From a virus, in IMG/VR virus record IMGVR_UViG_3300047650_000023: DNA of 64,000 nucleotides; one strand, written 5' to 3'. Each line of letters begins with the position of its first letter. Positions within the stretch are counted from its first letter, which is position 1. The position numbers and the translations under genes are program-made. The notes beneath the pieces are model-generated. The model ran no database searches. It saw only the letters and a list, made by a program, of their open reading frames with translations, and was not told where the DNA came from. Shown piece after piece: positions 14,440-63,715 of this stretch.

Positions 14440-14497
14440 TTACAATTTAAACTCCAAATATACCATAAAATGTTAGTTCTATTAACTATTTGAAATA

Positions 14498-14857
14498 TTA
14501 ATTATTCTTAATACCAGAACTATTTTCTAGTATCCAATTTCCTCTTTTTTCTGCATTTTGAGATAAATAATCATCTTTTTCAATAACATCATTACACTTA
14601 AACAATTCAACTTCTGAATCATTTAGACTATTAAAAAACATTAATTTATTATTATCATATATAGTAATACCTAATGTTTCATAGTCTGAAAAGAATACAA
14701 TCTTATCCTTTGAATCTTTAACAATCAACTGATATTGTGCTACAATAATTCTTGCTTTACTCCTTGAAGTATCAGTATCGTCTATATTATTTTTGCTATT
14801 ATCAAACACCCACAAGTTTCGACTGAGTATATCTAATATTGATTTATTAATATTCAT
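14498..14857 (-). CDS. Hypothetical protein (start more likely MNINKS at 14857)
   Basis: ATG adjacent to the dut stop. Confidence 0.55.
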   Translation of the reverse strand: MNINKSILDILSRNLWVFDNSKNNIDDTDTSRSKARIIVAQYQLIVKDSKDKIVFFSDYETLGITIYDNNKLMFFNSLNDSEVELFKCNDVIEKDDYLSQNAEKRGNWILENSSGIKNN

Positions 14858-14858
14858 A

Positions 14859-15341
14859 TTATTTAGTCTCTTTTTTTGTTGTTGAACCAAAACCACCTGT
14901 ACGTTTAACGTCTGTATTACCACTATCTGCTACAAGGTAATTAATAAACATTCCTTGACCTATCTTGTCACCTGCATTAATTATGTATGGTGTATCTCCT
15001 AGATTTAAAAGTCTAAATCCTATATTTCCATCATTACTTTCATTTGAATAATAATCACTCTCGATCCAACCTTGAATATTAGCAATTATAACAGGTTGTT
15101 TACCCATAGAACTGCGTACATTAAGTAATAATGCTTCATTTGGGAAAAAGTATGATTTAACATCTGTCCAAATCATTTGATTTTTATTAGGCTGAATTAT
15201 AACATCAATAGGTGAAAAGAAATCATATGCTATTGAATGTTCTGTTGCTCTTTGTGGAATTGTAATCTCACCTACTGTTTTACGAAAATCATCTGATACT
15301 ACTTCAAAACCTCTTGCTTTATGAATAGGTCTTCCCATCAA
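14859..15341 (-). CDS. dut: Trimeric dUTPase
   Basis: 'PQRATEHSIAYDF', 'VRSSMG', 'GWIESDYY.N..NDGNI', 'RTGGFGST'. Confidence 0.95.
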   Translation of the reverse strand: MMGRPIHKARGFEVVSDDFRKTVGEITIPQRATEHSIAYDFFSPIDVIIQPNKNQMIWTDVKSYFFPNEALLLNVRSSMGKQPVIIANIQGWIESDYYSNESNDGNIGFRLLNLGDTPYIINAGDKIGQGMFINYLVADSGNTDVKRTGGFGSTTKKETK

Positions 15342-15985
15342 TTATTATCTCCTTTAAATTTTAGTTTATTATATATAGGTACTAACCAACTACCAAAACA
15401 GTTTCCTATTGTAACTACTACAATAAATTTGAGTGCTTTTAAAGAAATAAGTGATAATCCATTCATCATACCGAAATAAAACATATCTGCAATACAGTGT
15501 TCAAATTTACAAAGAATAAACACGGAAACACATAAAAATACTCCAATATATTTTCCTATATCAGATTTATTATTTTTAAAATTATCAACTGCTATATACA
15601 TTAACAGTCCACAAAAGAATGCCAAAATTAATGTAGAATATATCGGCTGTATTAATTTAGCATTACATAATGTCGTTGCTTTAAGTGCCAAATCAGGTCT
15701 AATATAATATAAACCTTGACAATATAAATCTGTTCCAAATAAATTTCCAAACCATATAATAACAAGACTAATCATATAATTAGGTTTATTATATAACAGA
15801 TATCCCACTTTACCTGTGAATAAATTAAATTGAAATACTAAAATTACGAATAATCCTATACCAAATAATAGTGATCCAATTACATGATTGTCGGTGGACA
15901 GATAAACTGTTCCACCAATACTAATCATAATACCTGCTATAATAGCTGAAATAAACGTTCTGAGATAGATTTTTAATTGTTCCAT
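15338..15985 (-). CDS. Formate/nitrite transporter (FNT) family channel
   Basis: 'AGIMISIGG', 'NLFTGK', 'IWFGNLFG', 'LAFFCGLLM', 'FEHCIADM', 'TIGN..G'. Confidence 0.9.
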   Translation of the reverse strand: MEQLKIYLRTFISAIIAGIMISIGGTVYLSTDNHVIGSLLFGIGLFVILVFQFNLFTGKVGYLLYNKPNYMISLVIIWFGNLFGTDLYCQGLYYIRPDLALKATTLCNAKLIQPIYSTLILAFFCGLLMYIAVDNFKNNKSDIGKYIGVFLCVSVFILCKFEHCIADMFYFGMMNGLSLISLKALKFIVVVTIGNCFGSWLVPIYNKLKFKGDNN

Positions 15986-16461
15986 AGAATTACCTCACTT
16001 TGTTTTAAACTCTCATTTACATTAATTATACGTTGATTAGATGAACCTTTGAATTTCAGTGATGTATCTTTTAACTTTTCAATAAATTCACCATCAACAA
16101 GAACATCAATATATTTAAGCATTTCATGATTTTTTATATCTTCAAATTTAAATCCTGTATATGCCCAAATTGTTTTAGTTGGTGATTTACTTTTAATTTG
16201 TTTAAGAAATTCAATCAATTCATCTTCTGAATATAATGGATCACCGCCACTAAGAGTAATTCCATCAATTAAAGAATCTGTGTTTATATAATTAATAATA
16301 TAATCCTGCATTTCTTTGTTAAATGGTTTTCCATAATTAAAATTAGATAATCTTTGGTTATGACAATTAAAACAGTTATGTTTACAACCACTAATAAAAA
16401 GAACTGTTCTTATACCAATACCATCATTTAAACTTTCATGAATTATTCCACCAATATTCAA
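15973..16461 (-). CDS. nrdG: Anaerobic ribonucleotide reductase activating enzyme
   Basis: 'NDGIGIRTVLFISGCKHNCFNC', 'GITLSGGDP', 'DVLVDGEF', 'FKGSSNQR'. Confidence 0.95.
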   Translation of the reverse strand: MNIGGIIHESLNDGIGIRTVLFISGCKHNCFNCHNQRLSNFNYGKPFNKEMQDYIINYINTDSLIDGITLSGGDPLYSEDELIEFLKQIKSKSPTKTIWAYTGFKFEDIKNHEMLKYIDVLVDGEFIEKLKDTSLKFKGSSNQRIINVNESLKQSEVILWNN

Positions 16462-18692: not shown

Positions 18693-18908
18693 TTATACTC
18701 TCCATTCTTTTTTATAATTATAATAATTATCTTTACTTAGTTCTGCAATTTTCCCCATCAAATCCTTATTTGCTTGTCTTAATTCATTGTTTTCATCTAT
18801 CACTTCCTTATATTGAGTTTCTTTGATGTCACTAGCCATATAATAGCCTGCGAAAATACAAAGTAGACATGCCCATATCACCCCAATTATAACTACTATT
18901 TCATCCAT
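18693..18908 (-). CDS. Small membrane-anchored hypothetical protein
   Basis: N-terminal TM helix plus coiled coil. Confidence 0.5.
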   Translation of the reverse strand: MDEIVVIIGVIWACLLCIFAGYYMASDIKETQYKEVIDENNELRQANKDLMGKIAELSKDNYYNYKKEWRV

Positions 18909-18914
18909 ATAAGT

Positions 18915-21757: not shown

Positions 21758-24700
21758 TATTCACTTTCTTTCTTTTCAAATTTCTTCTTAGTGTTCTTAT
21801 TATTGAGAATACATCGTTCTAGTTTTACCTTATCTATTATTACACAACAATCTACGGCACAATGATATTCAAATTCTACAGATTTATCAACCTTGGTAAG
21901 TGTAACTGAAAATAACTGGTCACAGCCTTCACATTGTTCAATAGTCAATTTTAGACTTCTTCTTTCTCTTATTTAATTTATTGTTTATATTCTTGTTTTC
22001 ATCATCTCCATATTCTCTAAGATTACGTTTGCTTTTCTTGTATTCCTTAATACGGTCTTTTTCTTTTTGCTCTGGTGTTTTCAAACTTATGTATTCCTTT
22101 CTATTTCTGTTTTTAATTTATTTTAGTTGCTGATAATATTATACTATACAATCCCGACTATGTCAATACAATTCTTAATTTATTTCAGTTATCTTTTGAT
22201 TTCACCGATTGTATATAATTCATCTTCAAGTTCTTTTGAAATATTCATAGAAGTTCCTATAGATTCTTCATTATGATAATAGAAATTAGTATCTTCTGAA
22301 GATACGCGATATTTAACACCTTTAAGATATTCTATATGACTAATCGGATTAATAAAATCATTCAAAAAATAAATATATTTTTGTGGTTTAGACATTTATA
22401 ATTACTCCTTTACGATTTATTTATTTTACCACAGTTACCTTCACATTTCCAAATAACATTCTGTAGTTCATAAATTCTAGTTATTGAAGAACCACAAGCA
22501 GGACAGAATTCTAGATTTGGCTCAGTCATTTTCTTTTGTATTTCAATTATCCCACATTTGGGACAATTGTATTTATAATAAGCCATTTATTATTTATCAC
22601 ATCACTTCATAAAAAATATTCCAATACATATTGCTATTATGTTAGTAATTAGCCCAACAGTAAAACCAATAAAAAATCCTTTATAATATTCTTGATTAAA
22701 ATTTTTGCTGTTTAATTTTTTATTATCATCTTTTTCACAGATTTCATTTAACTTATCATCAACTTGTTTCATTGATTTATAAATATGTGTCACCTTCAAT
22801 TCTTACTAAATCTCACCAAAAGATTTTTTTATTCACATTATTTTTGCATTAATCTGATATTCGATTTCACCATTTATTCTTGAAACAGAATATGAAATGA
22901 GTTTTGCATTACCAGCATTGTCAAAATTGATTTTAGAATAGATATTTAAATTATGTACATCATATTTTGTTATGACTTTATTTGCAATATTAACTAAAAT
23001 ACGCTTAAAAGGACTCTTCAATATATTTCACCTCCAATCAATTGAACATATCATGTTAAGTTTTATTAAAATAATTAGGATGTTCATTTAAAAACTGTAG
23101 ACCATTTTTTAAATATTTTTTATATTCATATTGTTTTTGAATATACTTCCACGGTTTTGCTTCATAATAAGGAACGTTTTTATATTCCTCTATGATTTCT
23201 CCTGTTTTAGAATCTTTTAAAGTTATATCTACACTATCATTTCCCATTAGAAATTCATTTATAATTTATTCACTTCCTAATATACAATCAAAGTTGTATT
23301 TGTTGATATATTAATCATCATAATCATTTTTAGCTTCATCATATCCATCATCGTAACCTTCGGTGTATGATTTATCTTTTATTGTTTCAATAACTTCCTC
23401 ATTAATTGAAGCCTCATAATTATTTATATAATTAGATATTTCTTTATTAACTTCCAATAACAAATTTTCAATATCCTCTTTTGATTCAATTTTACCTACA
23501 ATATAAGCTGGAATAATAATCACCTCCCATCGTATAACCTTATATAAGCCTACAGACTCACTTATTTTCTCCAAGCATAATTATTGCACTATAATCGTCA
23601 GATGCTGATATAACGCCTAGAATTGGCTTGTATGTATCTTCTGATTGAATAAATACAAGTGCGAGAGAATCATCATGAAACTTGCTTTTATCATTTAGTT
23701 GTTCTTTTAAGTCTTTTACTGTTAAACAACTTTGACCCATTTCCAGTCCTCCTTTCATTTAAAACTATCACCAATGGTACGATTTATGGTAGTTGTGTGG
23801 TTTCTATATTAACAAGTTCTTCTTTTAGACTTTTAATCTGATCTTTTATATATTGTTTTCTTTGTTCTATCTTTTGTTTTTCAACTACTTCGCTTTTATT
23901 TAATTCATTTTTACTAAACTCTTCTTCAAATTTCCAATAGTCACTTTCATCTCCATTCCAACTACTATTAAGAATAGATTCAACTTTTTCAATTGTAAAA
24001 GCAGGAGCAAACCAATCACATCCGTGCCCACAACAATCGTGTTTTGAATTATAATCTTTATCTTCAGGAGAACATTGACAATATCCCCAACTACGTTCAT
24101 CTGATTTAAATGTAATTCTATAATAATAATTCTCATCATCATTTTTAATTATGTAAACAGAAATACTACCATACGTGTACCCGCCTGTATTATCTTCCTC
24201 ATAACTACTAATTCTATATTCATTTCTTGTAATATCATTGATAAAAACATTGCTATCATTAATATTTTGATCTATTATTGATACCATATAGCATATATCT
24301 AATGGTCGCTTATTGTTATCTATTCTGTATTCATTTTCCCTATTTAAAGTATCAATTAATTCTCTTATAAAGTAATCTTTAACTTCCATTTTTTATCTCC
24401 TTTAAATTTTTATTATTAATCAATTATTTAATCTATTGGGTTTTGCAAGTCTTTAATAACATTTATTCTGTATTCTTCGAGCCAATGATCTTTATATTTA
24501 ATTGTTTGTAATATTGGAATTAAACAATCATATTCCCAATTTTCAAAACACCTAATTGTAATATCATTAATCTCAACATTATTATATTTCAATCCGTAAG
24601 TAACCATATCAATAATTAGTATATTAACATCTCGACTATTAAAATGAGATAAAATATGAAATATTGAAATCAGTCTATGATTATTATTTAGATTTTGTCC

Positions 24701-25551: not shown

Positions 25552-25593
25552 TTAATTATTCCTCATTTCTTATCAATATCATGATTTATTAGA

Positions 25594-26690: not shown

Positions 26691-26937
26691 TAATTATCTC
26701 CTTTAATTTTAATTTATTTTATACAATCAATCTCATCTTTTATGAACATATCTATTAATTTGATTTCGATATTCAATACATTTATTCCAAATAGTATCAC
26801 GTTCAACACTACAATCTACACAAGTTCCAACATCACTTTCAGGGTTACCAAAAGTAGCACATTTACTTAGTTTAATATATTTTGTTATTTCTATTTCAGT
26901 CATTTTATCAACTCCTTGTTTCTCTTAGAAAATATAC

Positions 26938-28020
26938 TTATACTGTACTTCCATATAATTCGCTTTCATGCTCAACTTGCTCATTTTTGTTTTTATTTTT
27001 TAATATACTAATTGCCGTATTAAGACACCATAGTTCTTCAGTTGTTATATCATAAATATCATATTCTTCTTCATGATCAAGTTTCCATTGTAATCGTTCA
27101 AGTTCATTAGCTATATCTGTTGGTGTATATGACTTACTTTCCATAATATTTTTCACCTCACTTTCAATATTTGTTAACATATTATATACAACTTAATACA
27201 AGTCCTGTTATTTTAGTGTTTATAGGTTTGATAGTATCAATATATAATTTATTCACATTAAGAAGTATATATTTATCATATACATCTCCATATTCTGGAT
27301 AAATATATTTTTTACCAAGTTTATCATTAATTAAAATTGCATAATTCCCATTATATTTCATAGAACTTAAACTATTAATACATTCTTTTACGGTCATAAT
27401 TTTTCATCTCCTATCTACCATGAAATAACACTTCTATTGTACTTTTTCAATACCAAAACTAAAATCAAACCTAATATTATACACATTAGCATTACATTTT
27501 GAACAATTTTTAGTAACAATTTTATTCGCTAAAATATGTACTAGATCATAATTGATATTATTATCATTAGTATAATACATTTCTTTGTTGTAAAGATTAT
27601 TAATTCTATTATTACAGACAATACATTCTGTTGACATCTTAACAATATTTATATTGATTTTATAAGACACATTATCTAAATCATTATTGCTAGTCATATT
27701 AATTAATTCTTTCCATACTTCATAAGATATGCTAATTCTTCTCTTAATATTATCTTCTCTAAAACCATAATTCTTAATTAATAAAATTGAAGTAGAATCT
27801 AAATTAATATCTATTTAATTCTATCTTTAATTTTATTAAATATTTCACAATCAATGCAAGACCTTTCTCCTAAATAGTTATTAATACAAAATGGATTGTT
27901 TGTACTACTATAAGCATGACATGTGCAACCACCTGTTATTTCTTTTGCTGTTTCATAATTCATCTCGTTCACATTAAGATTTAAATTATCAAACAAATTT
28001 TTTACCTCAGTATTATTCAT
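26938..28020 (-). other. Four small hypothetical ORFs (26938, 27182, 27434, 27811)
   Basis: ORF track; two carry CxxC pairs. Confidence 0.55.
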
Positions 28021-30318: not shown

Positions 30319-33300
30319 TTAATTTATAGGATAATTTTTAACTAAAAAACTCTGTCTCTTTTCTAGTTTATCGTTATATTTGACACAATAACTATCTTCA
30401 TATAATGCTTTACAAACTTCGCTTCCATATTCAGATAATATTTTATTCATAGATTCAATAAATTGTTTATGCAATTTACTACTTTCATTATAATCTTCTA
30501 AATTATCTTTTACTTCAAAGTCTATTGTAAATCTATGTTTACCCATTAATATCACTTCTTTCAGTTTATTTATTCTATAGAAAGATAATTTGGTTAGGAT
30601 TTTACAACATATATTTATTTGATATATCAGACCATATTTCTTGAAGAAAAGTATCGTGTTTTTCTTCTTCGTCTACATATGCCAAACTTAAAAAATATCG
30701 TTCCCAACATTGAAGTTTTTCTTCTGTTGTACAATGATCTTGACCATCAAAATCAAATTGTTCGTCTTTTTCTATACACTTCTTTTCACCCATATACCGA
30801 ATATTTTGAGAAAAAGCAATATAAGGACATTCTTTATTTTCATCTATAAATATTCTTTTACAAGTTAATCGTAACGCTTTTTTATAATCTTCAATTTTAA
30901 AATCTATATCCATTTTAATCTCCTTTTCTACTATAAAATATAATTTTGGTCGTATTTTAGTTTTCTTTTTTAAATTTTCGTAATATCATCTGCCCCACAT
31001 TCAGCTTCGTTTAGTATTTCTTCAAGATTATTATAACATTCATTTACGTCAAGAATATACATTGTTGCTTTATATAGTTTAGCCATTATATTTTCCTTTC
31101 TCAACTACCATCAAATTTAAGATTGATTCACTTTATATATACATCCAAATAATGATATGATAAGAATAATCATTGAAGTCATACAAATTTTCATGCTAAA
31201 TGAATTTAAAGTCCAAAATACAATTAATCCAGAAAAGAAAAATATAATTGCACAAATAATAGCTGCTTTTTTAAAAAAGTTTAAACTCATAATTTCACTC
31301 TTTCTTAACCCAATAATCAGGATATTCTCGTCTCAAAATCCTCATAGCTAATATTTGTTGGCATTTATGTATTCCATCTTGAAATATATCAATGTCATCT
31401 GGATGTTGTTTTTCTAATTGATTATATTCATTCCAAGCTGAAATTAGATTATCTATAACTTTCTGTTCTTGCTCTGTTAAACCTGAATTTATTTCTACTT
31501 CCATATAACCACAAGTAGTACATCTATATTGTTGAAAATACGAATCCCAATCCATTAAATCACTACATTGAGGACACATTTTAGTTTTATGAATCATGAT
31601 TATTTTACTCCTTTTTCTAAATCTCTAATCAATTTTAAAATTTATTGACAGTCGCATGTATCTTCGTGACATTGAATTATGTCTATTGTTTGATATCTTA
31701 ATTGACTTTGAATTGAAAATAATAAATCGTTAAAATCTGGTCTATCTTCTTCTAAATCTATATGTAGATTTGAATAAATCTCTATCCTAAGATTTTCAAT
31801 TTCATCTGCAATTTCTTTTAATCTATTACTATAATACGTTTACCTCACCTCTTAACTATCGTAGAATGGCAGATTGATGATATATTTTAATTACTTATAT
31901 ATAATGAACCATTTGCTTTTAATCTTGGTGTTATAGCAATTGCAGGACTATCTCCACCATAACCTCCTGATCCTGATACAACTATATAATTTACACCAGT
32001 ATCTTTATCTACAACATACATGGTGCTATAATTTCCATTATTATTTTGCGCCCATATTTGAAGTGGTGCTGTTTGGTCATCTGCTGTTACTGTTTTAGAT
32101 GAACATGCTCCCAAACCAAACATTGTTATTAAAATCATAATCATTAATATTTTCTTCATTATTTCAATTCTTCTTTCTAAATCTCATAGATTTGTAATTC
32201 TATAAGATTTTTCGTAAACTTAACTTTTCCATATCATAATTGTTTCTGATATAATCTACTAAATTATTAATTGTTATTTTAATAAATTCGTCTTTTAATT
32301 CTGAACGACAATAGCAATTACAAGAATTTTCTTTTCCATTTTGTTTATATTTATTAAGACTAAATGTTACTTTAAATAATAATATATCATCAGGATTCTT
32401 TATTATTTTCTTTTTTAACCATTTGAACATAATTCATTTTCCTTTCCTTTCTCAAACTTACAATGAATCCATGAATCTATTGTACTCGACCTAATATAAA
32501 TTTTGTTTGATTAATTCCAAATGGAAAACTTGCAATACAAACCCAATTACTTTTTAATCTCCAAGATAATTCTTTTGTATCTGTTGTTTCAAAAACTTCT
32601 TTAACCATTGGAAATACATTGTTTTGTGGTTTAAATTCAGCTTCTCTAATAATTTTATCAAATTCATTTTCCATAATATTTTTACCTTTCTAATTATAAT
32701 TCATTAAGAGATTTAATTGCTTGAGTTGCCTAGATATCCGCTTAAATTACTAAGAACATGTTGATATGCCCAATATTGTGGATTACCAAAAGCATTTATA
32801 ATATTATTTAAATCTATAATTAAAACGATAGCAAAAGAAAATATTAAACAGGACGATATAACTATTTTTATAATTGTCCAATTTTCATTATATTTTTTAT
32901 TATAATCATCATTTATTATTAAAGATATAGATTTTTTCAATACAATAATGCTTAATATTATAACTATTAACCCTATAGCACACCATAAAATAGATTTAAT
33001 TCCACTTATATAAGCTTGATGTACATACAAAGCAAATAATTGTTTTACATATCCACTAATTTGATTTGCAGCCATGCCTAATTTACTTGCTATATTATTT
33101 ATCACATTATTAATTTGATTTGAAACATTCATTAATTTTTACCTCTTTCTATTCCTAATTTATCTTTATTTATTAATTGTTTAAGTCTACTTATAATTTC
33201 AGGTGTCATCGATATAGACGAGTCATCTTCTAAATCACGCATGAAATTAGTATATTTCTTAAATTCAGACTATGTCTTATATTTATTTGCATTTTTTCTT

Positions 33301-35443
33301 ATCTCTTTTCGTATTTGTCTATATAGTGATTTTTCACTATATAATTCATGAGTATAGAAATACGCAACTCGCCTATAACATAATTCATTGATTGTAGCTT
33401 TGTTAATTTCTTTTTGATATTTATTCATGAAGATATTTATTTCTCTTATTATAAAGCTTATTATACATTTCTGGTTCACCTAAATAAGCAAAAGGTATTG
33501 CAGAATATTTATTTAAGAATTTAGTTAGTTTATTGTTATAATAATTAAACCAAATTTTATACCATAATATTTTCATTTTTATTCCTTTTATTCTATCTGT
33601 TTTTATTATCTTTATCAATATCTGGATGAAATGAAAAATTCTCATTTAGGATTACTGCTTTTAATTTTTCTGGTTTTTGTACAGCACTTTTACAGCAAGT
33701 AGGTGGAGGGGTAAATTCGTGTAAATGTCCTTCTATTTTATCAATTGCTGTTTCAGCAGTGAGAGCGCATTCATGACATATATATAATTTTTTATTTTTT
33801 GATAATTGATATTTAAATGACCAGCCTTTTTCTCTTTTAAATTGTTGTTTACAAAAATAACAATCTTTCCATAGAAAAGGATTTAATTTTACTAAACTAT
33901 ATTTTTCATAACCAATTTCTTTATAATAATCTTCTTTTGATTTTTCTCTTTTCATATTTATCCTTTCTAACACAACTATGATCAAATCAAGAATTGATTG
34001 ACTCTTCATTATAGTCAAATGTAAATGTAGTTTTATTTTCTAACAATAGTTTAAGTATTTTGTCCTGTTTACTTATTCGATTATTATAAATATTATTTTC
34101 TTGAATATCTTTAACAATCTGATTTGTACACACTTTCTTCATCATTTCCTTATCCGATAATATTTTTATTGCTGATTCAATTTGATTATCAGCATCGTTT
34201 TCTTTAGTCCAAATCGTACTATAAAGAATATCTATTCTTGTTTTATGATACCATCGTTCATTATCTCTCTTATATTTTATAGATAGCCAAATTTGATAAT
34301 TCAACAAAGTATAATCTATTGTGGTATAATTAGGTTTTACAACAACTGAAATATTCATATTATTTCTCCTTTAGTTTTTATTAATACTACGATCAAATCG
34401 ATATTTTATGTGTTTTTAACCGTTATATTTATTATAAATCATTTTATCAGTCCAACCTTCATTTTCGCGCAATGACTTGATTTCAGTTAAAATATCTCTA
34501 CATACTTTTCTATATTTGTTAATCAAACTAAATTCATTTTTATACATTTCTTTTTCATATTCATCATAATCTGTAGAATTATCATATACAAAATCTGGAT
34601 CACATTTTATATCTATTTTACGAGTTATTGTAATCCATTCAATTCCGTTATTGTAATAGTATTTAGTATTATCAATATTTGGATTGTCTAATGTATTACC
34701 TATATTTATTTCAAAATCAAAATCAATTTCATTACCGTTTAAGTATCTTTTAAGTGTTATATCTACATATTGATATTCTTGAATAGAATCAAAATCGCTT
34801 GTCTCCCATTCTGAAACACTATTGAGATAATCATTGCTTTTAGAAGCAATTTGAACATACTCTTCTGCTTTATATTTATTAGTAAAAATTTTTTCAATAC
34901 AATAATCTGAATAGCATCCTGAAGTAATTACATAAATTTTCATAACCAATTCTTCTTTCTTAATTTATAATTTTATACAATAAAACTGATGATTGATTGT
35001 ATATTTCAACGATAAACATTAGAACTTTTAAATTTAAAGTAACCTTTATGATAACCACATTTTTTACAAGTTACAGACACTCTTATGTTTGGTTGTTTAA
35101 GTATTTCATTTCCATATTCGTCAACAATAGTGTTACAATATGATTTTTCATCATATTCAAATTCATGTTTACAAAAACATTGTCGTATGTAATTGATAAA
35201 CCATCTCATTCAAATCATTTCCTCTTTATTTAATATTTTTATATTTATAATGTGCTTAAATGGTATGCAAAGGTTATCTTTAGAATAATAAATATCATCA
35301 AAAATATCTAAATATTTTGAATCAAAACCTTTGATTTCACCTTTAAAAATCATTCTTTTAATATCTTCAATTTCAATAAAATCACCAATTTTAAATTCAT
35401 TTTCATTAATAATTAATTTCTTTTCTATTCTAAAATCTATCAT
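30319..35443 (-). other. Array of about 13 small accessory ORFs, including a DUF6440-like lipoprotein (31887-32159) and a membrane protein (32713-33132)
   Basis: ORF track; lipobox 'LGAC' and 'YVVDKDTGVNY...ITPRL.A.G..Y' in the 31887 ORF. Confidence 0.6.
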
Positions 35444-37427: not shown

Positions 37428-37480
37428 CGTTATTCTCCTTCATATTTTTAATTTCTTTCAACTACAATAAAACATTAATT

Positions 37481-38005
37481 TCATTGTATTAAATATCCCA
37501 TTTCATTCAAGACATTTTTGCTTTTCTTTCTTATCGTACTCATAATTGTATTTTGACTTCGATTGAGTATTCCTCTTACATCGACAAAAATTAAATATGT
37601 ATTAAATATTTTTTTCTGATTTATATTCATATTTGAAATTAATTTATTATAAGCCTCTTTTACTTCTAATATATTATAATCTGAATAATCTGGTAACATA
37701 TCTATTTTTTGTGTAGAACAATTATCATCATCTATACGAATGTTTTCGTTTAATGAACATTCTTTATTATGCTTATCTAAGTTTTTAAAATAATGATATA
37801 AAGAAAATTGCATACATTTATACGCATATCTGCTAAATTTACAACCAATATCAGGATTATAGTTTACTACTGCATTACACAGACCTTCTGCTAAATATCC
37901 GTATGTATCACTTAATGAAAGATTTTTAAGTTTTACAAAACTATATATTAGATGCTCATTTTTAGCTACGATTGTTCGTTGCTCTTGTGTAAGTTTGTAC
38001 TTCAT
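37481..38005 (-). CDS. Phage sigma-70-family sigma factor-like protein
   Basis: Region 2-like 'NEHLIYSFV...EGLCNAVVNYNPDIGCKFSRYAYKCM'. Confidence 0.75.
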   Translation of the reverse strand: MKYKLTQEQRTIVAKNEHLIYSFVKLKNLSLSDTYGYLAEGLCNAVVNYNPDIGCKFSRYAYKCMQFSLYHYFKNLDKHNKECSLNENIRIDDDNCSTQKIDMLPDYSDYNILEVKEAYNKLISNMNINQKKIFNTYLIFVDVRGILNRSQNTIMSTIRKKSKNVLNEMGYLIQ

Positions 38006-38103
38006 TACATTTCACCTTTCTTAATTTATTTATTATTGAAACCAAAATTTATTGTTTCCACGTTATTATCCTTTCTTTTAATTTGTTTTCTTTGACACTT
38101 ATT

Positions 38104-38132
38104 ATTATAGCCTGAAATAAATTAAATGTCAA
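38104..38132 (-). promoter_or_regulatory. Consensus SigA promoter inside a 22-bp inverted repeat
   Basis: TTGACA-17 nt-TATAAT; 38104-38125 is the exact reverse complement of 38152-38173. Confidence 0.85.
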
Positions 38133-38183
38133 GTCTTTTTTCTAAACTTTATTAATTTATTTCAGGCTATAATTTATTATATA

Positions 38184-38656: not shown

Positions 38657-39744
38657 TTAATCAACTTCCTTTCCACAGTTTTCACATACCAATTCGCTCA
38701 TTCTTTCATCTACATTACCCTCTTGATATGGTCTAAGCTCTTTATATTGCCTTGTAGACAGCTTAGATAGACAGATAGGACATATGTCATTATCTCGACA
38801 AATGCCCTGAAGTGTTGTTCTTATTAGTTTAGTATTGTATCTATTATGTAGAATGTCTTGTAATATATCTGCTTGTAATAGTGGATCATCATTATAATAA
38901 TTTTTTATTGCTTCTATTAATTCTAATGTCATTTATTTAAGTCCCTTTCTTCTAATTTTATTCCTCTGTTTTTTGATAAACTCCAAAACATGCTTCTTTA
39001 TCACTATATCCCACATCATTAAATTCAAAATCCATTTCAGTTCTATAATATGGATAAGGATAAGACATTTTCTTTAATTGTTCATCAGGTATTCTTTCAA
39101 ACAAATCTACAATAATTTTGAAATCATCATCAAGATTCTTTGTTGCTTTTCTCATATCTCCTAATGTCACGATTTTCAATTTATCACCTCTTTTGTTTAA
39201 ATTTTTGATAAATGACAAATTATCATCCTTGATATTTATTAAATAATTCGCCCATTATCATATTGTTTTGTCCAGCAAGATCAATAGCTAAAGCACAAAT
39301 ATTTCTTTCTGTTGATGCTCCTATTTCTTCAGAAAAATATTCAAGAATATTTTTATATTTTCTCTCTTTTATATATCTATCATCAGGAGATAAATTCTTA
39401 TTTTCTTTTTCCAAATCTTCCCTACCAGTTCCATCCCATGCTTTTATATAATGATTATTTATATTATATCTGCGATTAACTGCTCCCATATTTGAACCGT
39501 CAGCATAACGCCACCAACCCCAATCGTCCTTCCAATCGGAAGCATTATCTAATTCTTGAAAATTTTCATCGGTTAACTCCCACACTTGATAGTCCTCGCA
39601 ATATTCCCCATTTTTATTTTTTATCTGATAAGTTTTCTTTGCATTAATATTCAAATTTTTTAAAGTTTGATCTAATTCTGCACCAAGAATTTCTTTCAAT
39701 ATAATCATTCCTTTCTTTTTTAAAAACCCAATCAAAGATGTCAT
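38657..39744 (-). other. Three hypothetical ORFs (38657 with two CxxC pairs, 38958, 39223)
   Basis: ORF track. Confidence 0.55.
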
Positions 39745-40506
39745 TTATTGTAGTTTAGATACTATACCTTGTATACGTTTATTTGCCATATCACAATATG
39801 TAGTATCGTTTTCAAATCCTATAAAGTTTCTTTTTGTGTTTATACATGCAACAGCCGTACTTCCTGAACCAATACAATTATCAAGCACCAATTCATTCTC
39901 ATTTGTATATGTATTAACTAACCACTCTAAACACTCGACTGGTTTCTGTGTGGGATGAATCGTTGTTGACGGATGAGGCTTTTGAAATGTTAAAATTGAT
40001 TTTGGATATTTCAAATTTCCTTTAGTCTCTACAGCATCTAATTCGCCATAATTAGTATTCCTTGAAAAATCTTCTTGTGATTTACCAACTGCATTTCCTC
40101 GACTATGACATTCTTTACCTTCAACCATCTGAGGATTATATGTAGGTGGTTTTTTATAAAATACACAAATATCTTCGTGACTACGCATTGGCATCTTCTT
40201 TGCGTTTAAGAACCCACTTGGAAGAGCCTTATCCCATACAAGATTATATTTCCACATCTTTCTGTTGCTCTGCATCAAGTCTGCTGTAAACATACCATTT
40301 GCAAATAATACAATTGCTCCATCGTCTTTTATGATTCTTGTATATTGCTCCCATAGCGGTTGAAATGGTATAACTGTATCCCATTTATTTCTTGCAGTTT
40401 GACCATATGGAAGATCACATAATATCATATCAATTGATTTATTATTAATATTTTGCATACCAATTAGACAATCTTCATTATAAATTTTATTAATTTCTAA
40501 AATTAT
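39745..40506 (-). CDS. Beta-class amino (m6A/m4C) DNA methyltransferase; probable ATA start at 40506
   Basis: 'CDLPYG', 'HPTQKP', 'VLDNCIGSGST'; upstream frame adds 'ILEINKIYNEDCLIG' with AAGGAG 8 nt before ATA. Confidence 0.9.
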   Translation of the reverse strand: MILEINKIYNEDCLIGMQNINNKSIDMILCDLPYGQTARNKWDTVIPFQPLWEQYTRIIKDDGAIVLFANGMFTADLMQSNRKMWKYNLVWDKALPSGFLNAKKMPMRSHEDICVFYKKPPTYNPQMVEGKECHSRGNAVGKSQEDFSRNTNYGELDAVETKGNLKYPKSILTFQKPHPSTTIHPTQKPVECLEWLVNTYTNENELVLDNCIGSGSTAVACINTKRNFIGFENDTTYCDMANKRIQGIVSKLQ

Positions 40507-40573
40507 TAATCATTCTCCTTTAATTTATTGTTAAGCTCCAACTTCTAATCAAACTCTCAATTGGTTAGAACAT

Positions 40574-53737: not shown

Positions 53738-53873
53738 TTAATCTTTCCTTTCTTAAATTTAAAATATCTATATAAACACCTTTTACAAGAAATAATTTAT
53801 ATATACGACAAACTAAAATTAAACATACCATCAAACTCTGAATTGCTTGGCTTTTTATTTGCCGAAACATAAG

Positions 53874-54444: not shown

Positions 54445-57400
54445 TTACATTTTCACAAACTTTTCAAGTTCTCCTGCGTTTTGAGATTGCTTCAATTTCT
54501 CCAAATTTCCGTTATTATCAACGCTATACAACCAATAAGCATCCCTCATTATCTTGCTAGTTATTATATATGTCACTTCATCGCTATCGCTTAGATAAGA
54601 TACCCAGATTGATTCTCCTTTCGGTAACTTAATTTGTTGCTTCACTTCTTTTACTTTTGGAATTAGTTATCTTCCTCCTCATCATCATCTTCATGGAACA
54701 TTTCCATAGCATCGTCCCAACCACCCCAATTATCAACTCCGCAAGCTTCAAGACAACCTAGTTTTTCACTGTCTTCTCGAAGTTGATCATAAAGTGCTTT
54801 TGAAATTATTATTGTTTCTTCATTTGACATATTATCACTCCTTCCTTTACTTATTCAATCCGTCATACATACTTGCTTTTTCAATAATATCAGTTAACTC
54901 GTCATAAGAATATTCTTTTGCATCAATCACAAGCATTGTATCACCACCATCAATAATATTTAAATCTGTGGGTGTAGTAATAAGAATATAATCTTCTGGC
55001 AAACACTCTTGAATACTGTTATGTAATTTTAACGCTGTTGAAGATGAAATCAACATACAACCGTTTTTCTTATCCATTGGAATCTTTTGATGTAATATTT
55101 TAGACATTCAATTTCACTCTTTTCTATTATTAATTTCTTTATTATGCTTTACAAACATTCATCATCAGTTCACAAAACTCGGCACTCTTATCACCTGCAA
55201 TCTTTTGACTTACAGAATCCTTTTGTGTAGGCGATAGACTATTCCACAGTGGGGTTGCTCTTGCTACGAAATCATTCATCTTTTCTTTCTTAGTCATTAG
55301 TTTTCACCTCCTAACCATATAAAATCATACTTTCATTCACATTACAGTGTCCCATTTTTCTGCAAGTGTATCTAAAAGGTTTATATTATCAAGTTTCATC
55401 ATAGTTTTAAATCCTTTTTTAATTCCAAATGGTTTTAATGCTTTTCTGAGTGCTGAAATTTTAAAACAACCAAGAATATTTTGTCTATTTCTTACCCAAC
55501 TAATAATAGTTTGATAATCCCATTCGTCATACTCTCGCATATTTTTCAATTCTTTTTCAAAGTCATTTCTTTGAATCCCAACACTTTGCATAAGTTTCTT
55601 TAGACGTTTTCGTTTAGCTGTCATATGTAACTCCTTTTTCTTTAACTTATACTCTCAGCTTGATTTTTAAATGCTTTAATTCTTTCATTAAAATCATCTT
55701 GAGTTATTTGCTTATAATCATCAAACAATTTAATTGGATTCTCTATATAATCTAAAATTGAAAAACAACTATTATTCTGATAAATAAGAATTTTTACGCC
55801 TTTTATTTTACCACATATAATCTCATTAATTTTAATATAGGATATTTCAAATTCATTACTATTAAACGCCCAATATGTATTTTTAAAATAAGATAAATCC
55901 GAATTTAAAATTTCATTTCTTTGATTACATTTTAATGTATTTAATTTTTCATCAAGCTGTTTTAATACAATATTTAACCCATCTATTTGTTGAGTTGTAG
56001 TTAATATCTCAATTGCATTTGATTTAATACTCATTTTTACTCCTTTAAATCTGCTTGTATTATTAAAATATCAAGACTTATAATTTTATCCCCATCAATC
56101 GCGTATTTTATGGTATATTTATCACTACATATGGTGGTTTTAATTTAATTTATATACTATATATAGACACCATTTCTATCAAATAGACTTCTCCAACTCA
56201 TCAATTTCAAGTTCAACCTTCTTATCATTTGAAAGAAGACTGTGTAGTTTACTTTCAAGTGCCTTTAGACGATATTCCTCGTTTTTACGATCAATATTCA
56301 TAAGTTTTGCTTTCAAATCAGTAATCCAATCATCAATTGAATAACTTGAAATATTATACTCATTTAACACGCCCAAATCTTTAGCAGATAAACGATATGC
56401 ATTAAGCTTAACCATAAGAGTAATAATCTGATCTTTATTAAGCACTTGAATATTAGTCCTTATTCCATCAATTTCTATAGAGCAATTTGTTATAGGACAA
56501 AACTTTTCAGTTGCTTTAAGTGACTTCTTTTTATCCTCAACCTGTTTCTTTAGACTTAATATTTTCTTATCATTATTTTCTGTTGCCATTGTTTACTTCC
56601 ACTCCTTAATTATTTCTTTTTTATCGTTATAAGTTACTAAATATTTAGGATTAATTTTATTATATACTTGTTCTGGTAATGAGTTTTCGATTATCCTTTC
56701 ATCCCTATGTCCTTTAATTGTTACATAAACATTATAAGTAGATTCTCTTTTATTATAATAAGAATAATCTCTATATCTTTCTATATAGTATCTTACATAA
56801 TTGTTATTAATTTTAACATAGCACTTATTATGCCAATAGCAATTTTTATTTAATGCTGTTTTAAAATCATTTAATGTATAATCTAAATATTCATCATATT
56901 TAGGTTCTCTCGAAGAATAACTACTACTTTTCAATAATTCATCCATTAAATTAGAATAATCTTCAATACATGTCTTATCGATCAAATCAATAATATTACC
57001 ACTCAAAGATTTAATAGGAATAATTTTATTATAATTTGCGTTTTTATCATAGAAAAAGTATGTTTTAGTTTCTTTTTTGTCTTCATTATTTTCATAAAAT
57101 CTTCCTAAATATATTAACGCATTATTATTATTTGATTTATATGTTCCACCTAAAATTAAATTTTTACCTTCAAATTTTTTATTTTCATGTCTTAATATAT
57201 TTAATTCGGCTATTTCCTTATAATCTGGTGATAAAGTAGGAACAAGTATTAAATCTTTACCATCCCATCCATAAATAAAATCACCCTCAAGCCCCTTGCC
57301 TTTAATTGAGTTAGCATTTTCAAGTATGTAAAGTAAATTTTCAATTGTAATCTCAAACTCAAAATTACGAGGATCATAAACCCTTACATAAGCTTGTCGA

Positions 57401-57639: not shown

Positions 57640-57651
57640 TTCTATCCTCCT

Positions 57652-58248
<597 letters not shown>

Positions 58249-58398
58249 TTATTACATTTATATTCAACTAACTTTTGCATACCGTCATTAATCAAATGTG
58301 ATAATAGATATTCGTAATCGTGTTTACAAAATAACTTATTAAAAAACTTCATTGTGTCCTTTCTTAAAATCCTAATCAATTGTAGATTTGATTATAGT

Positions 58399-59063: not shown

Positions 59064-59120
59064 TTTTATACCTCTTTCTTTCTAATATTATTTATATAAA
59101 TTTATTACTTACAAAAAAGT

Positions 59121-59274
59121 TGGTGGTACGGAGCTTTGCACTCCTGTAACTGTCCTGCATGGTTTAACACAAAGGCAAGCGGCGTTACACCTTCAGTATA
59201 TACTTTGTGCAATTACCCACCGTATGGGGACTGTGTATTTTCTTCCACTGGCTTTATTCTTTGCCTAACCACCA
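59121..59274 (-). ncRNA. Candidate structured non-coding RNA of unknown class
   Basis: GC-richer intergenic island; 5' TGGTGGT pairs with 3' ACCACCA, followed by a T tract; T-arm-like hairpin GGAG-TGCAAAG-CTCC. Confidence 0.55.
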
Positions 59275-59357
59275 TTATTATAGAAACGCTCTTAGATGTA
59301 CTGAATCTCAATTATGTATGTACCTGTGTGAATTCAACATTAGGGTTATATTCTAAC

Positions 59358-60312
59358 TTAATTATCTTCCCAAATCTCTACAATTTCATAACCATTTACA
59401 CATTCATTAATATCATATTCATCAATGATATCGTTCCAATTTTCATTCAAAATCTTTTCTTCTGCTTCTTTTTTATCATTTGCAGTTACATAACCTTTTA
59501 AATTTGTAAAACCATGTGATACAATAAATCCGAAATTTTTCATTTATTCTCACCTCACAATGCTCATCAAAATGCTCTTTTATTAACACTCTAAAATGAA
59601 GTGAATATATTCTCCAACATGCTGACTAAATTCATAATCGAGATCATGACCACCAATACTAAAATCTTCTACGTCATATCCTGTTATTGTATATTCTGAA
59701 TATCCACACAAAGCAATATCTGTTTTTACCTCACCTTCAAGCTCAAACAACAATGATTCCATAGCTTCGTCAATATCACATTCTTTATCAGTAAAATATA
59801 CACGAATGTTTGCATCTTCAATATAACTTTTATCTCCACCTAAACCACGCTTATAATGTCCTGTCATCCCATTATCTTCTGCAAATGATTCTACCTGTCT
59901 CACAATAGGAGAATCACGATCCCAACTGTCAGAGTCCTTATCTTTACTGGTCGCTAACATCCCATTATCATCTGTATTAAGCCAACCTTGAACATGTAAT
60001 TCTGGCATTATGTATCTCTCCTTACTTATTATTAATTTATAATTTCTAAAAATGTTCATCAATGGATTATTCGATGTGCTTTTTAACTTGATTTTTAATA
60101 TAAAATCCATAATCAAAATCACCAATTTCATATCTATAACCATGTAAACCGTTTTGTCCTCCTACTGGAGGAGAGTATTTTTCTAAGAAAATATCTAAAT
60201 ATTTTTTACCAATGACTATTACTAAGTCACTACTACCATAGATACAAGAAACATATTGAGTTAAGTTTATAACATCCATTTGAACTTTTAATGATTTAAT
60301 TTTAATCACCAC
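59358..60312 (-). other. Three hypothetical ORFs (59358; 59583 with probable start MPELHV; 60067)
   Basis: ORF track. Confidence 0.5.
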
Positions 60313-60343
60313 ACTTTTTTAATTTGTTTTACTCTGCTCTTAT

Positions 60344-60372
60344 ATTATACTAACATTTGGACAACTTGTCAA
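60344..60372 (-). promoter_or_regulatory. Consensus SigA promoter
   Basis: TTGACA-17 nt-TATAAT. Confidence 0.85.
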
Positions 60373-60446
60373 TACTATTTTTAAACTTTTCTTAATTTAT
60401 TTTAGTAACTGTTCAAATCCGATAAAATAAAAGTTTTATTATAGCT

Positions 60447-61097: not shown

Positions 61098-61149
61098 TTG
61101 ATTATACTTCTTTCTTTTTAATTTATTAATATCTCATCAAAGAGAAGTT

Positions 61150-62409
61150 CTATGCACACTTTATAATTTCTTTTTTCCCATTACCGTATTCAAGAATACT
61201 ATCTGGAACTATATTAAAATATGTATTTGCTATATCAGGATACTGCTTTTCAAACTGCTCCATATAAACCCAACAACTACCCTTTTTATTAATCTCTTTT
61301 ATGTAACGATCAATATTCCTTTTATATTTCTTATAGTCTTTATTACTCATTCCCCTACATTGAGAATATAACTTGAAACTAAACTTTTTAAAAATACTTG
61401 GTTGATTACACCAACTTGCTAAATTTGTGTACATTCCTTTATATTTGCTTGTATAACACTTCTCATATCTCATTATGTAAGGTAATGCAGAATATTTTGA
61501 CAGAATTAGAATTCTTTCAAATGTATCTTTAATATCTTTTATCCAAAATTCTTCATCCCATTTTTCATTATAATCATATCCGCAAAGTACATAGAATTTC
61601 ATTCGCTTTTTAAATGATGGATATAATTGAAATATTCTTTTTAGTTTATTTTCTATTAAATCCTTATCCTTAATATTATCAAAAGCAAATATATAATCGT
61701 CATCATATTTCCAAGAAACCAATTCGTGTATTTTTTCATCGTTTAATAGTCTTTCATCTAATCCCTGTTTAAATTGAAAATATTTATTTGTAACTTTGAC
61801 TTCTTGAATTATTTGTTTCCATGATGAACAAGCAAAGAAATTATCATCTAAGAAACACAATTTAGGTCTATCTGCGTCAAGAAATTCATTTACACTACTA
61901 TGTGATATTGCTTGATTGTATTTTTTATTTACACAAAAAGGACATTTTCTAAAGCAACCACGAGTTAAAAATCCAATTGAATAATCTGTATAATAAGAAA
62001 AATCATTTCTGATTTTTTGTATCTGTGTTTTTGTTAACTCATTTTTTAGTTTATTTTCTTTATCTTGTATTGCTACTTTTATTTTCTTTGCTACCAAATC
62101 ATCATACAAATGATAATCAGGCATATGATGTTCAATCTCATCGGGTAATGGTGGAGCATTCTCATAAAAGAAACCTGTTCCACCGTATTGAACATTCGGA
62201 AGGTTTATAATATCATCAGGAATTAAAGTATCTGTAAAAACTTTAGATATCAAAACCAAATCGTATTGATCTAAATTTTCATAATTTATTTTTAAAATAA
62301 CCTCATTACCTTGTTGTTTATAATATCCACTCAACTTCATACAAGCTAAATTGGGAAATCTGTGTTTACTCCGTCCAATTAAATCCGCATCAATAATTGC
62401 TATATTTAT
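61150..62409 (-). CDS. Radical SAM protein with N-terminal flavodoxin/B12-binding-like domain; probable ATA start at 62409
   Basis: 'TRGCFRKCPFC' CxxxCxxC, 'FLDDNFF', 'QGLDERL'; upstream frame adds 'NIAIIDADLIGRSKHRFPNLAC'; GAGGTG 7 nt before ATA. Confidence 0.85.
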   Translation of the reverse strand: MNIAIIDADLIGRSKHRFPNLACMKLSGYYKQQGNEVILKINYENLDQYDLVLISKVFTDTLIPDDIINLPNVQYGGTGFFYENAPPLPDEIEHHMPDYHLYDDLVAKKIKVAIQDKENKLKNELTKTQIQKIRNDFSYYTDYSIGFLTRGCFRKCPFCVNKKYNQAISHSSVNEFLDADRPKLCFLDDNFFACSSWKQIIQEVKVTNKYFQFKQGLDERLLNDEKIHELVSWKYDDDYIFAFDNIKDKDLIENKLKRIFQLYPSFKKRMKFYVLCGYDYNEKWDEEFWIKDIKDTFERILILSKYSALPYIMRYEKCYTSKYKGMYTNLASWCNQPSIFKKFSFKLYSQCRGMSNKDYKKYKRNIDRYIKEINKKGSCWVYMEQFEKQYPDIANTYFNIVPDSILEYGNGKKEIIKCA

Positions 62410-62421
62410 ATATTATCACCT

Positions 62422-62763
62422 CTAAGCATTAAATATATCTTCCTCCTTATAATATGTAAATTGTCTTCTTGTATTTTCTGGAACAGGTAATTCAATTCTA
62501 AATTCAACAACATCACAATTGCGTTCACCACTATAATAACTTAACACGGTCATAGTGTATTGACCGTTATCTTCTATAATGGTAACTTCTTTGCAATTAA
62601 AATTTTGAGCAAATTTACGTACTTCCGACTTAAAACATTTATAGGTCATATATGAACAGAATCCAAAAATGTGATCACTATTATCCACCTTGAATAAACA
62701 TTGTTGCCAATTGCCACGATAGTCTTTAGTTTTATCTTCATTCCATTTAATTCTATTAGTCAT
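62422..62763 (-). CDS. Hypothetical protein
   Basis: First gene after promoter 62796. Confidence 0.55.
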   Translation of the reverse strand: MTNRIKWNEDKTKDYRGNWQQCLFKVDNSDHIFGFCSYMTYKCFKSEVRKFAQNFNCKEVTIIEDNGQYTMTVLSYYSGERNCDVVEFRIELPVPENTRRQFTYYKEEDIFNA

Positions 62764-62795
62764 AATAAGTACCTCACTTTTAATTTATTGTACTT

Positions 62796-62824
62796 ATTAT
62801 ACTATAAATAAATTAAGATTGCAA
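62796..62824 (-). promoter_or_regulatory. Near-consensus SigA promoter
   Basis: TTGCAA-17 nt-TATAAT. Confidence 0.7.
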
Positions 62825-62933
62825 TAGTTATTTCAAACTATTTATTAAACATACCATAAAAGACAGGTTTTATTATATGCTTGTATCTATATATTGGGTT
62901 ACTAATTTTAATAACTACTATATATAGTATGTA

Positions 62934-63659
62934 TTAATTATTATATACAAACAATTTTTCAATACTTTGACTACGACTTGCTTTATCTAATGTTGTGGTT
63001 AATTCTTTGCTCCAAATACATTTAAAATCTTTCGGTGCATTATATTCACTTATAAATACTTTGTTTTCTTTTGATATATCTCTAATCCATTGCCAAAATA
63101 TATCATAGTCAAAGTTTTTACTTGTTCCATAAAGTGTTGTACCTTGATATGGAGGATCACAATATATAATAGCATTTTTAAAACCAGTAAAATATGTATA
63201 GTCTTCAGCTACAAATTCAACATCATCAAGTTTAAATGCTTGATTGATTATGTTTCTTACAGCTTCATCATAATAGTTTCTATCTGTGTCTATCTTTGTA
63301 TGTACTATTCCAGCATAACCTCCAAACCACTTTGCATTATAAGTTGCACAAAATCCTGCAATGGCTACAAGAGCCTTACCGTAATCCTCTTTATGGTCTT
63401 TAATACTATTATACATTTCTCTTGTCATCGTTTCTGGAGGCTTCCAGCCTTGTTGTAGAGACTTCCACATATCAATTAAATACTCATTATTATCAGCACC
63501 TATTTTTTTATTACATCGAATTTTCTCCATCATATTTGCTCCACCAACAAAAGGCTCAATATAAATTTTTTTATCATTTTCATCTATATAGCGTTGAATA
63601 ATTGGAGAAATTTCTTTTGCTATACGTGCTTTACTTCCCATATATTTAATAATTATCAC
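62934..63659 (-). CDS. Dam-like (D12 class) DNA adenine methyltransferase
   Basis: 'YMGSK', 'YIEPFVGGANM', 'YCDPPY', 'VFISEY'. Confidence 0.92.
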   Translation of the reverse strand: MIIIKYMGSKARIAKEISPIIQRYIDENDKKIYIEPFVGGANMMEKIRCNKKIGADNNEYLIDMWKSLQQGWKPPETMTREMYNSIKDHKEDYGKALVAIAGFCATYNAKWFGGYAGIVHTKIDTDRNYYDEAVRNIINQAFKLDDVEFVAEDYTYFTGFKNAIIYCDPPYQGTTLYGTSKNFDYDIFWQWIRDISKENKVFISEYNAPKDFKCIWSKELTTTLDKASRSQSIEKLFVYNN

Positions 63660-63715
63660 ATTCTTTCTTAATTTCTTTTAATATACAATCAATCACACGT
63701 TTGATGGTATACATT

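Follow-up and report, generated by a model that had tools for sequence, protein, structure and literature searches.

A fixed-gap dyad at the gene junctions of SPbeta-like phages, a possible address-coded joint for module exchange

Results

The phage, the window and the source contig

The DNA analysed here, a 64,000-nucleotide stretch of the virus record IMGVR_UViG_3300047650_000023 from IMG/VR (the window), belongs to a phage in which a short palindromic element, two inverted half-sites held apart by a gap of 6 bp (the dyad), recurs at gene junctions. The window has a G+C content of ~27%. Its genes lie on the plus strand up to ~12.4 kb and on the minus strand from there to the window end, and a large serine recombinase (12446-13960) is encoded at the meeting point of the two arms. 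Besides this recombinase, Pfam and PHROGs searches identified an anaerobic ribonucleotide reductase (NrdD/NrdG), a dUTPase, an NAD ligase, RecD2, two DNA methylases, a GIY-YIG endonuclease, and a small sigma-factor-like protein. The DnaE-type polymerase aligned over its full length with YorL of Bacillus phage SPbeta (40% identity), and homologues of YorF, G, H, I, and J were present with their order kept. Features that mark SPbeta-like phages were all found, namely the YorF-YorL replication block, a large serine integrase, and an MrpR-like protein; the phage is a distant SPbeta-like phage of a low-GC host, which is probably an anaerobe.

Part of a 116.7-kb Logan contig was 100% identical to the window, and walking along this contig added 26.6 kb of early (minus-strand) arm and 9.4 kb of late arm. 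The walk stopped at position 1 of the record, and a protein cluster lists a contig of 187,759 bases as its longest. The genome may be incomplete, and the negative results for recombinases and other enzymes of this phage cover 106 kb.

A fixed-gap dyad recurs at gene junctions

An earlier reading of the sequence (the original prediction) had described a recurring 18-bp core with a fixed spacer. This pattern matched 51 times on both strands of the window, compared with 13.8 ± 4.2 matches in dinucleotide shuffles, and none of 100 shuffles reached 51. When the half-site pair was scanned at gaps of 0-13 bp, only gap 6 was enriched, with 51 matches against 7-19 at every other gap, so that the claim of a spacer of strictly 6 bp held as well. 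Generic palindromes were not enriched at gap 6 in the window, and the signal is therefore a specific motif and not a result of AT bias; an artefact of the latter kind was ruled out by the shuffles, the gap scan, the generic-palindrome control, and a control with unrelated phages.

Sites were defined by an iterated weight matrix, and the site counts given below for this phage are matrix hits above threshold. Of the 32 sites that the matrix gave for the window, 30 belong to the minus-strand arm; over the extended 90.6 kb it gave 44. The consensus in gene orientation reads K-H-Y-M, ATMAAW, six free bases, WTTKAT, K-R-K-A; information spans positions -3 to 22, and TACA/TGTA-like flanks extend the core arms to ~10 bp, giving a total of 18-28 bp. 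The first gap position avoids A and the last avoids T. With a measured geometry of about 10-6-10 the dyad matches the core sites of tyrosine recombinases (two inverted arms of ~11 bp around a crossover region of 6-8 bp), in line with the Xer/dif-like layout that had been proposed. The copies quoted in the original prediction (34980, 37467, 62856, and 63688) were all recovered, and two further pattern matches at 55319 and 24419 had low matrix scores. A scan of IMG/VR with a strict 25-nt pattern returned single chance matches only; this pattern proved too restrictive even in the window.

The minus-arm sites lie between genes: in 26 of 30, at least half of the core is non-coding, in an arm with only 10.6% non-coding DNA (p = 7e-22). 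The idea that one dyad arm contains or abuts the stop codon of the upstream gene was likewise borne out. Seven of the 30 sites have the first base of this stop codon at core position 2, where the arm reads A-TAG-AA, A-TGA-AA, or A-TAA-AW, and 23 of the 30 have it between -12 and +10 relative to the core start. The distance from the site to the next start codon is usually 16-40 nt and ranges to >250 nt. In long intergenic gaps (sites 60422, 31861, 40548, and 14465) the site remains at the stop codon; together with the terminator that follows 14465, this assigns the element to the 3' end of the gene unit.

All junction dyads listed here for the early arm are in minus orientation. The stop codon lies inside the arm at 23770..23787 (matrix score 18.4) and 27420..27437 (19.6), in both cases at position 2, and further at the weak site 32186..32203 (12.1), at 32463..32480 (16.6), at 37467..37484 (17.3), the junction between the sigma-factor gene and the NAD ligase gene, at 39731..39748 (21.2), downstream of an N6/N4 methylase gene, and at 61136..61153 (21.1). 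It lies in the gap at 26726..26743 (20.3, position 9), 31110..31127 (21.5, position 9), and 33981..33998 (20.2, position 10). The stop precedes the core at 59566..59583 (19.9, position -1), 22815..22832 (18.5, -2), the weak site 23037..23054 (13.2, -3), 25572..25589 (15.5, -6), 23287..23304 (17.2, -8), 34392..34409 (15.5, -8), 58375..58392 (18.7, -8), 60422..60439 (18.3, -9, upstream of a sigma-70-like promoter and with the next start at 279 nt), and the weak site 31861..31878 (12.7, -10, with the next start 264 nt away). The dyad at 14465..14482 (18.7) marks an operon end and is followed by a terminator-like hairpin and no ribosome-binding site; 31628..31645 (20.1) has the next start 31 nt on. 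The dyad at 18757..18774 (22.9) lies 65 nt upstream of the NrdD start and within a doubtful open reading frame of 71 amino acids, and 34980..34997 (19.1) has full outer arms (~11-6-11). Further copies were found in a 144-bp gap (56094..56111, 23.3), upstream of a sigma-70-like promoter (62856..62873, 18.9), and upstream of a Dam-like methylase gene (63688..63705, 22.5). For the copy at 60058..60075 (15.6), which falls within the called open reading frame 59583-60143, either the gene call or the site is uncertain.

The small-gene early arm is thus dense in dyads, and the late genes and the interior of the replication block are poor in them. One good copy was present in 21 kb of late arm, or one to three when weak ones are counted. 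It lies in plus orientation at 7947..7964 (21.4), just past the stop of gene 7500-7940; with this copy and a weak coding match at 3243, the left arm, in which no copies had been noticed before, is not empty. The conserved replication block had also been said to be bracketed by sites. At one edge, just downstream of RecD2, this applies (40548..40565, 17.2); the other site named, 52161, is weak and below threshold, and the strong site near that edge is 53830..53847 (22.6), upstream of an HD-domain gene.

The dyad as a DNA site

If the dyad acted as an RNA hairpin, its arms would be expected to covary. At the variable pairs of the core (3/16, 6/13, and 0/19), 14, 18, and 14 copies were paired, compared with 13.4, 17.0, and 13.4 expected from column shuffles; a marginal excess of pairing was confined to the outermost positions (total p = 0.04). 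The 30-mers averaged -3.1 kcal/mol when folded as RNA (z = -1.1); the expected stem was missing in many, and copies 32186 and 37467 are among the few that fold well. An Rfam search of the sites gave no match. The missing covariation and the weak folds argue for a DNA site read by a protein, as had been predicted: the arms vary independently, and we consider it very probable that the dyad is bound as DNA, half-site by half-site. The RNA hairpin was rejected as the leading explanation on covariation, Rfam, and fold energy.

Family-wide occurrence and clade-specific arms

The matrix of the window found almost no matches in 48 related loci. A dyad search blind to arm sequence revealed gap-6 dyads in relatives of this phage. 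In three complete gut relatives (G002-G004, DnaE 77% identical), GAAA-N6-TTTC occurs 32-34 times each compared with ~8 at other gaps, and the copies sit just before ribosome-binding sites. In SPbeta, TAAAA-N6-TTTTA occurs 29 times in the 84-kb right part compared with 0-2 at each other gap. The SPbeta arm embeds the TAA stop of yoqG, yoqY, yorT, mtbP, yorZ, yosC, yosF, yosR, and others, and the dyads number 27 in the early 69 kb versus 7 in the remaining 65 kb. No gap-6 excess was seen in two unrelated phages with one gene in common with the window, and the homologues of a 396-aa protein found in unrelated phages were without dyads. Relatives with the same arms as the window were sought with DnaE, which yielded only relatives of ≤82% identity with other arms, and with the ligase in metagenomes, which yielded one relative (53% identity) with SPbeta-type arms.

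Compared at the level of sequence, geometry and placement are family-wide and the arm sequence is clade-specific, the window phage having its own arm variant; the element is not a peculiarity of this phage. Constant geometry and placement with arms that differ by clade is the pattern expected of a co-evolving protein-DNA pair. The dyad is absent from a review of SPbeta (PMC8270828), from a comparative preprint, and from the repressor papers, and literature searches returned no description of it. The window contributes a previously unseen arm variant in which the outer arms are extended, and shows that the arms differ between clades.

Conservation of the gap sequences

The gaps were compared between SPbeta and its relative phi3T. 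For 18 of 29 exact SPbeta dyads a phi3T dyad with an identical gap was present in collinear position, compared with 0.35 expected. In five to six of these pairs both 60-bp flanks were at random-level identity, leaving a conserved island of 17-23 bp. Shared gaps were also found among the gut relatives (14 for G002/G003, 10 for G003/G004, and 7 for G002/G004 versus ~0.4 expected), with mostly unrelated flanks. In none of five genomes was a gap repeated within the genome. Gap G+C was 41% compared with 27% for the genome in this phage; the gaps of the gut clade are also GC-richer, those of SPbeta are not.

The ends of BLAST homology blocks between SPbeta and phi3T lay within 15 bp of an exact dyad in 9 of 52 cases (random expectation estimated at ~0.8). 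Among block ends that fall on gene ends, 9 of 22 carry a dyad, versus 16 of 169 gene ends overall.

Candidate readers and enzymes

An MrpR-like protein is encoded outside the window, ~15.6 kb past its right end (L134:10001-11053 on the source contig; PF22822, E = 6.5e-14). It gave no match to PF00589 and has no HxxR motif; as read from its sequence, it is a catalytically dead recombinase fold. The expectation of a recombinase-fold gene beyond the window was thus met by the presence of this protein, which is not an active recombinase. Genes for a PemK/MazF-type toxin and an Xre-type helix-turn-helix (HTH) protein (L134:9390-9896 and L134:8442-8654, the latter HTH_3) come before it, and a GmrSD-like gene comes after it; lysogeny control and defence are probably encoded in this region of the phage. 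In the relatives G002-G005, three to four PF00589 genes each were found.

In SPbeta lysogens, the recombinase-fold master repressor MrpR (YopR, SroF) gave ten peaks with the SPBRE motif in chromatin affinity precipitation sequencing (ChAP-seq) (PMC10516654). The SPBRE box that we derived from the ten named promoters, AAATACAAAWAATATGTATA, overlaps the -10 region and differs in sequence from the dyad. SroF of phi3T binds as a monomer to an asymmetric box of 24-26 bp, and a second repressor has been reported for SPbeta-like phages (bioRxiv 10.1101/2025.11.27.690993). MrpR/SroF was rejected as the dyad binder in SPbeta, its box being long, asymmetric, promoter-located, and monomer-bound. The suggestion that an MrpR/YopR-type repressor occupies the sites accordingly failed for SPbeta and phi3T, where the SPBRE-type box is not the dyad.

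Two more genes of the tyrosine recombinase family are annotated as site-specific integrases in SPbeta, yomM, located among tail genes, and yopP (SPbeta 40301-41302 and 78691-79767, records L126 and L138). To our knowledge no recombination role has been assigned to either; YomM and YopP are candidate dyad readers. A YorF-family protein (52206-53093, minus strand) and a Sak4-like AAA_24 protein (51122-52120, minus strand) are encoded next to each other in the conserved replication block. In its alignment the YorF-family protein resembles single-strand-binding proteins, including a C-terminal tail (...GRSLGF) that is conserved; the two proteins probably form a pair for single-strand annealing recombination. 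YorF was dropped as a dyad binder on account of this resemblance. The dyad does not appear to fit boxes of the IHF, FNR, CcpA, or ComK type in half-site order or spacing.

Promoters, a sigma-factor-like gene and a second motif

Four near-consensus sigma-70-type promoters (TTGACA-like, 17 bp, TATAAT) lie on the minus strand in longer gaps of the early arm, at ~62790-62830, 60290-60330, 38080-38120, and 22120-22160, and split this arm into several operons. Directly downstream of one of them, a 174-aa protein is encoded (37481-38005, minus strand) with a sigma-factor match (phrog_351, E = 1.7e-8) and a weak match to Sigma70_r2. We know of no sigma-factor gene in SPbeta.

A second, strand-specific motif, ATAAATTAA (often AAATAAATTAAR), occurs in 32 copies in the window versus 13 expected. 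It is found mostly on the coding strand just upstream of ribosome-binding sites, and it flanks the four promoters on both sides; minus-strand copies lie at 22113-22121, 22175-22183, 38021-38029, 38152-38160, 60392-60400, and 62780-62788. It may be the counterpart of the SPBRE/MrpR box in this phage, or a leader element. A composite promoter made of the dyad and ATAAATTAA was rejected by eye, the spacing varying between 8 and 21 nt.

Further genes and a non-coding gap

The dUTPase gene and nrdG/nrdD are separated by a gene of the formate/nitrite transporter family (15338-15985, minus strand; PF01226, E = 4e-27). It is an unusual passenger in a phage operon for nucleotide metabolism and may supply formate for the anaerobic reductase. 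The accessory genes include free-standing genes of the homing-endonuclease type, a GIY-YIG gene with NUMOD3 (28056-29069, minus strand) and an HNH-AP2 gene (53874-54206, minus strand). An actin-like segregation protein (ParM/ALP_N) is encoded on the same contig (L134:3621-4553); it occurs together with the large serine integrase of the phage. A non-coding gap of 294 bp (59064-59357) ends in a T-run and, judged by eye, is GC-richer than its neighborhood; an Rfam search of it gave no match even at E = 1, and its folding stability equalled that of shuffles (z = -0.06).

Discussion

We tentatively propose that the dyads are fixed, address-coded joints for module exchange that are bound by a protein, and hold this to be somewhat less probable than its negation. 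The reading is favored because it alone covers the whole set of observations, that is, a strict gap length and gap sequences that are unique yet conserved across unrelated flanks. A sequence-specific protein, acting as a dimer or as two monomers, would read the common arms of each dyad; each site combines these arms with a 6-bp gap of its own, which would serve as its address. Co-infecting or resident relatives would then recombine at sites with identical gaps, and units of ribosome-binding site, open reading frame, and stop codon would be replaced slot by slot with the gene order left undisturbed. The enzyme could be a tyrosine recombinase, which requires identical crossover regions, a nuclease that cuts in the gap together with the phage ligase, or an annealing protein of the Sak4 type that acts with the single-strand-binding-like YorF on short islands (16-26 bp). 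Exchange as a selected function, the identity of the enzyme, and the transfer from the relatives to this phage are what we infer beyond the data. If the dyads are such joints, they would explain how very large temperate phages can replace dozens of small accessory and anti-defence genes while their operons stay in order, and they would supply orthogonal recombination addresses ready for use.

Several results weigh against this proposal. About 80% of the SPbeta/phi3T block ends lie away from dyads, and dyads and mosaic ends both cluster in accessory regions, which inflates their association. The boundary test for the window, possible against distant relatives only, gave 6 of 16 versus 19 of 75, a difference that is not significant (p = 0.24), and the gaps of the window matched those of relatives at chance level, the relatives compared being distant and having other arms. 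Recent exchange at regulatory sites could have left the gaps conserved as a side effect, without their being a selected address. On the side of the enzyme, no PF00589 recombinase was found in the window and its flanking contig (106 kb, of which 42 kb flanking), and no binder or enzyme emerged other than the dead MrpR-like protein and the large serine integrase; none of the SPbeta proteins YopP and YomM (also YonO and YonN) has counterparts in all relatives. The idea of exchangeable gene cassettes in the original prediction is supported in part, as gene replacements in the relatives break at such sites with the gaps kept, and lacks an active recombinase in the 106 kb.

A palindrome with a fixed gap is the geometry of classical operators bound by HTH dimers. 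The dyads might accordingly be an operator or roadblock array through which a dimeric phage regulator (an HTH protein of the Xre/Cro type, or SroE) silences or shuts off the early operons in the manner of stoperators, with the joints as a by-product of short conserved sequences, as has been proposed for the PeSLs discussed below; we regard this as the main rival reading, possible but less probable than the exchange joints. The independently conserved half-sites and the dozens of copies, mostly in the early arm, are as expected of operators, an HTH_3 protein is encoded near the MrpR-like gene (L134:8442-8654), and the second repressor of SPbeta-like phages, reported without an assigned target, would be at hand (bioRxiv 10.1101/2025.11.27.690993). 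A pure operator, however, needs no site-specific gap that is kept identical while both neighbors change, nor does a roadblock need to keep to the upstream stop codon, as the sites do even before a distant gene or a terminator. Moreover, the ChAP-seq of MrpR gave its ten SPBRE peaks only, and SPBRE differs from the dyad. Even if they are only operators, the 30-45 sites in SPbeta and its relatives, an array not described so far, would mean that the intensely studied lysis-lysogeny circuit has a further regulator yet to be found.

A more specific version of the exchange proposal, which we consider unlikely, would make the dyads a natural cassette-exchange system, in which a dedicated enzyme swaps strands only between identical 6-bp gaps that serve as orthogonal addresses. 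The enzyme would then be a YopP/YomM-like recombinase, as in the Bacillus phages, or a gap-cutting nuclease with a ligase, and the phage studied here would represent a lineage whose arms and reader co-evolved to a new specificity.

Integron-type attC sites or Xer/dif-type sites served by a dedicated tyrosine recombinase of this phage would share the ~10-6-10 geometry, the overlap with stop codons, and the layout of one unit of ribosome-binding site and open reading frame per cassette, and the relatives do have their three to four PF00589 genes each. We nevertheless judge this improbable, since attC cores, long structured arms, IntI, attI, and arm pairing are all missing, no PF00589 gene is present in the 106 kb, and the recombinase-fold protein is without HxxR. 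An RNA-level element, either an intercistronic hairpin or a sequence read in the transcript that serves processing, stabilises the mRNA, or controls the downstream ribosome site, has equally little in its favor. The position between stop codon and ribosome-binding site in co-directional operons, the few copies that fold well (32186 and 37467 among them), and the marginal excess of outer pairing (p = 0.04) agree with it; core pairing equal to column shuffles, the low mean fold energy of -3.1 kcal/mol, the empty Rfam search, arms conserved in sequence and not in pairing, and sites that precede terminators do not. Promoters for the phage sigma factor (37481-38005) or another phage polymerase would fit a sigma-factor-like gene in the same arm and sites upstream of many genes, but are very improbable given the dyad symmetry with 6 bp between halves in place of a -35/-10 layout, the loose distance to the next start (16 to >250 nt) as opposed to the tight one to the upstream stop, the occurrence of the element in SPbeta, for which no sigma-factor gene is known to us, and the separate, clear sigma-70-type promoters.

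Comparison with known systems

Integron attC sites, too, are imperfect palindromes; they are placed at the 3' end of single-gene cassettes that lack a promoter and frequently overlap the stop codon. They are 57-141 bp long, act as a folded single strand, carry RYYYAAC/GTTRRRY cores, and need IntI, none of which applies to the dyads: no GTTRRRY or inverse core was seen, the length is 18-28 bp only, pairing is at chance, and neither IntI nor a PF00589 protein was found in the window and the 42 kb of contig that flank it. The likeness to attC that had been suggested was thus not substantiated.

Promoter-early stem-loops (PeSLs) of T4-type phages, which Arbiol et al. (2010) are said to have described as mobile regulatory cassettes, resemble the dyads as short conserved intergenic elements among small early genes and at the joints of module shuffling. 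A PeSL consists of a promoter and a stem-loop, whereas the dyads have no promoter and no arm pairing and are set apart by their strict 6-bp gap and the conservation of each site's own gap. The stoperators of cluster A mycobacteriophages, sites of the L5 gp71 repressor, are comparable in number (~25-35 in each genome) and likewise occupy the narrow spaces between genes of long operons, close to stop and start codons; these are asymmetric 13-bp sites oriented with transcription and with a known binder, while the dyads are palindromic and have a variable gap that is conserved at each site as if it were an address. The SPBRE/Phi3TRE boxes are dispersed, repeated DNA sites of the same phage family, and an MrpR-like protein is encoded here too. 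SPBRE overlaps the -10 region of about ten promoters; the dyads, in contrast, are 3-4x more numerous, symmetric, and located at gene 3' ends.

The pdif sites that bound dif modules on Acinetobacter plasmids (XerC/XerD) and the engineered heterospecific lox and FRT sites share with the dyads the inverted arms around a centre of 6-8 bp. No sequence likeness of the dyads to dif was noticed, and no active tyrosine recombinase was found in the 106 kb of this phage. In the pdif, lox, and FRT systems, sites with differing central regions do not cross-react, and the gap "addresses" of the dyads would be explained in the same way. Cassette exchange at the dyads, if true, would be a natural counterpart of cassette exchange with heterospecific lox and FRT sites.

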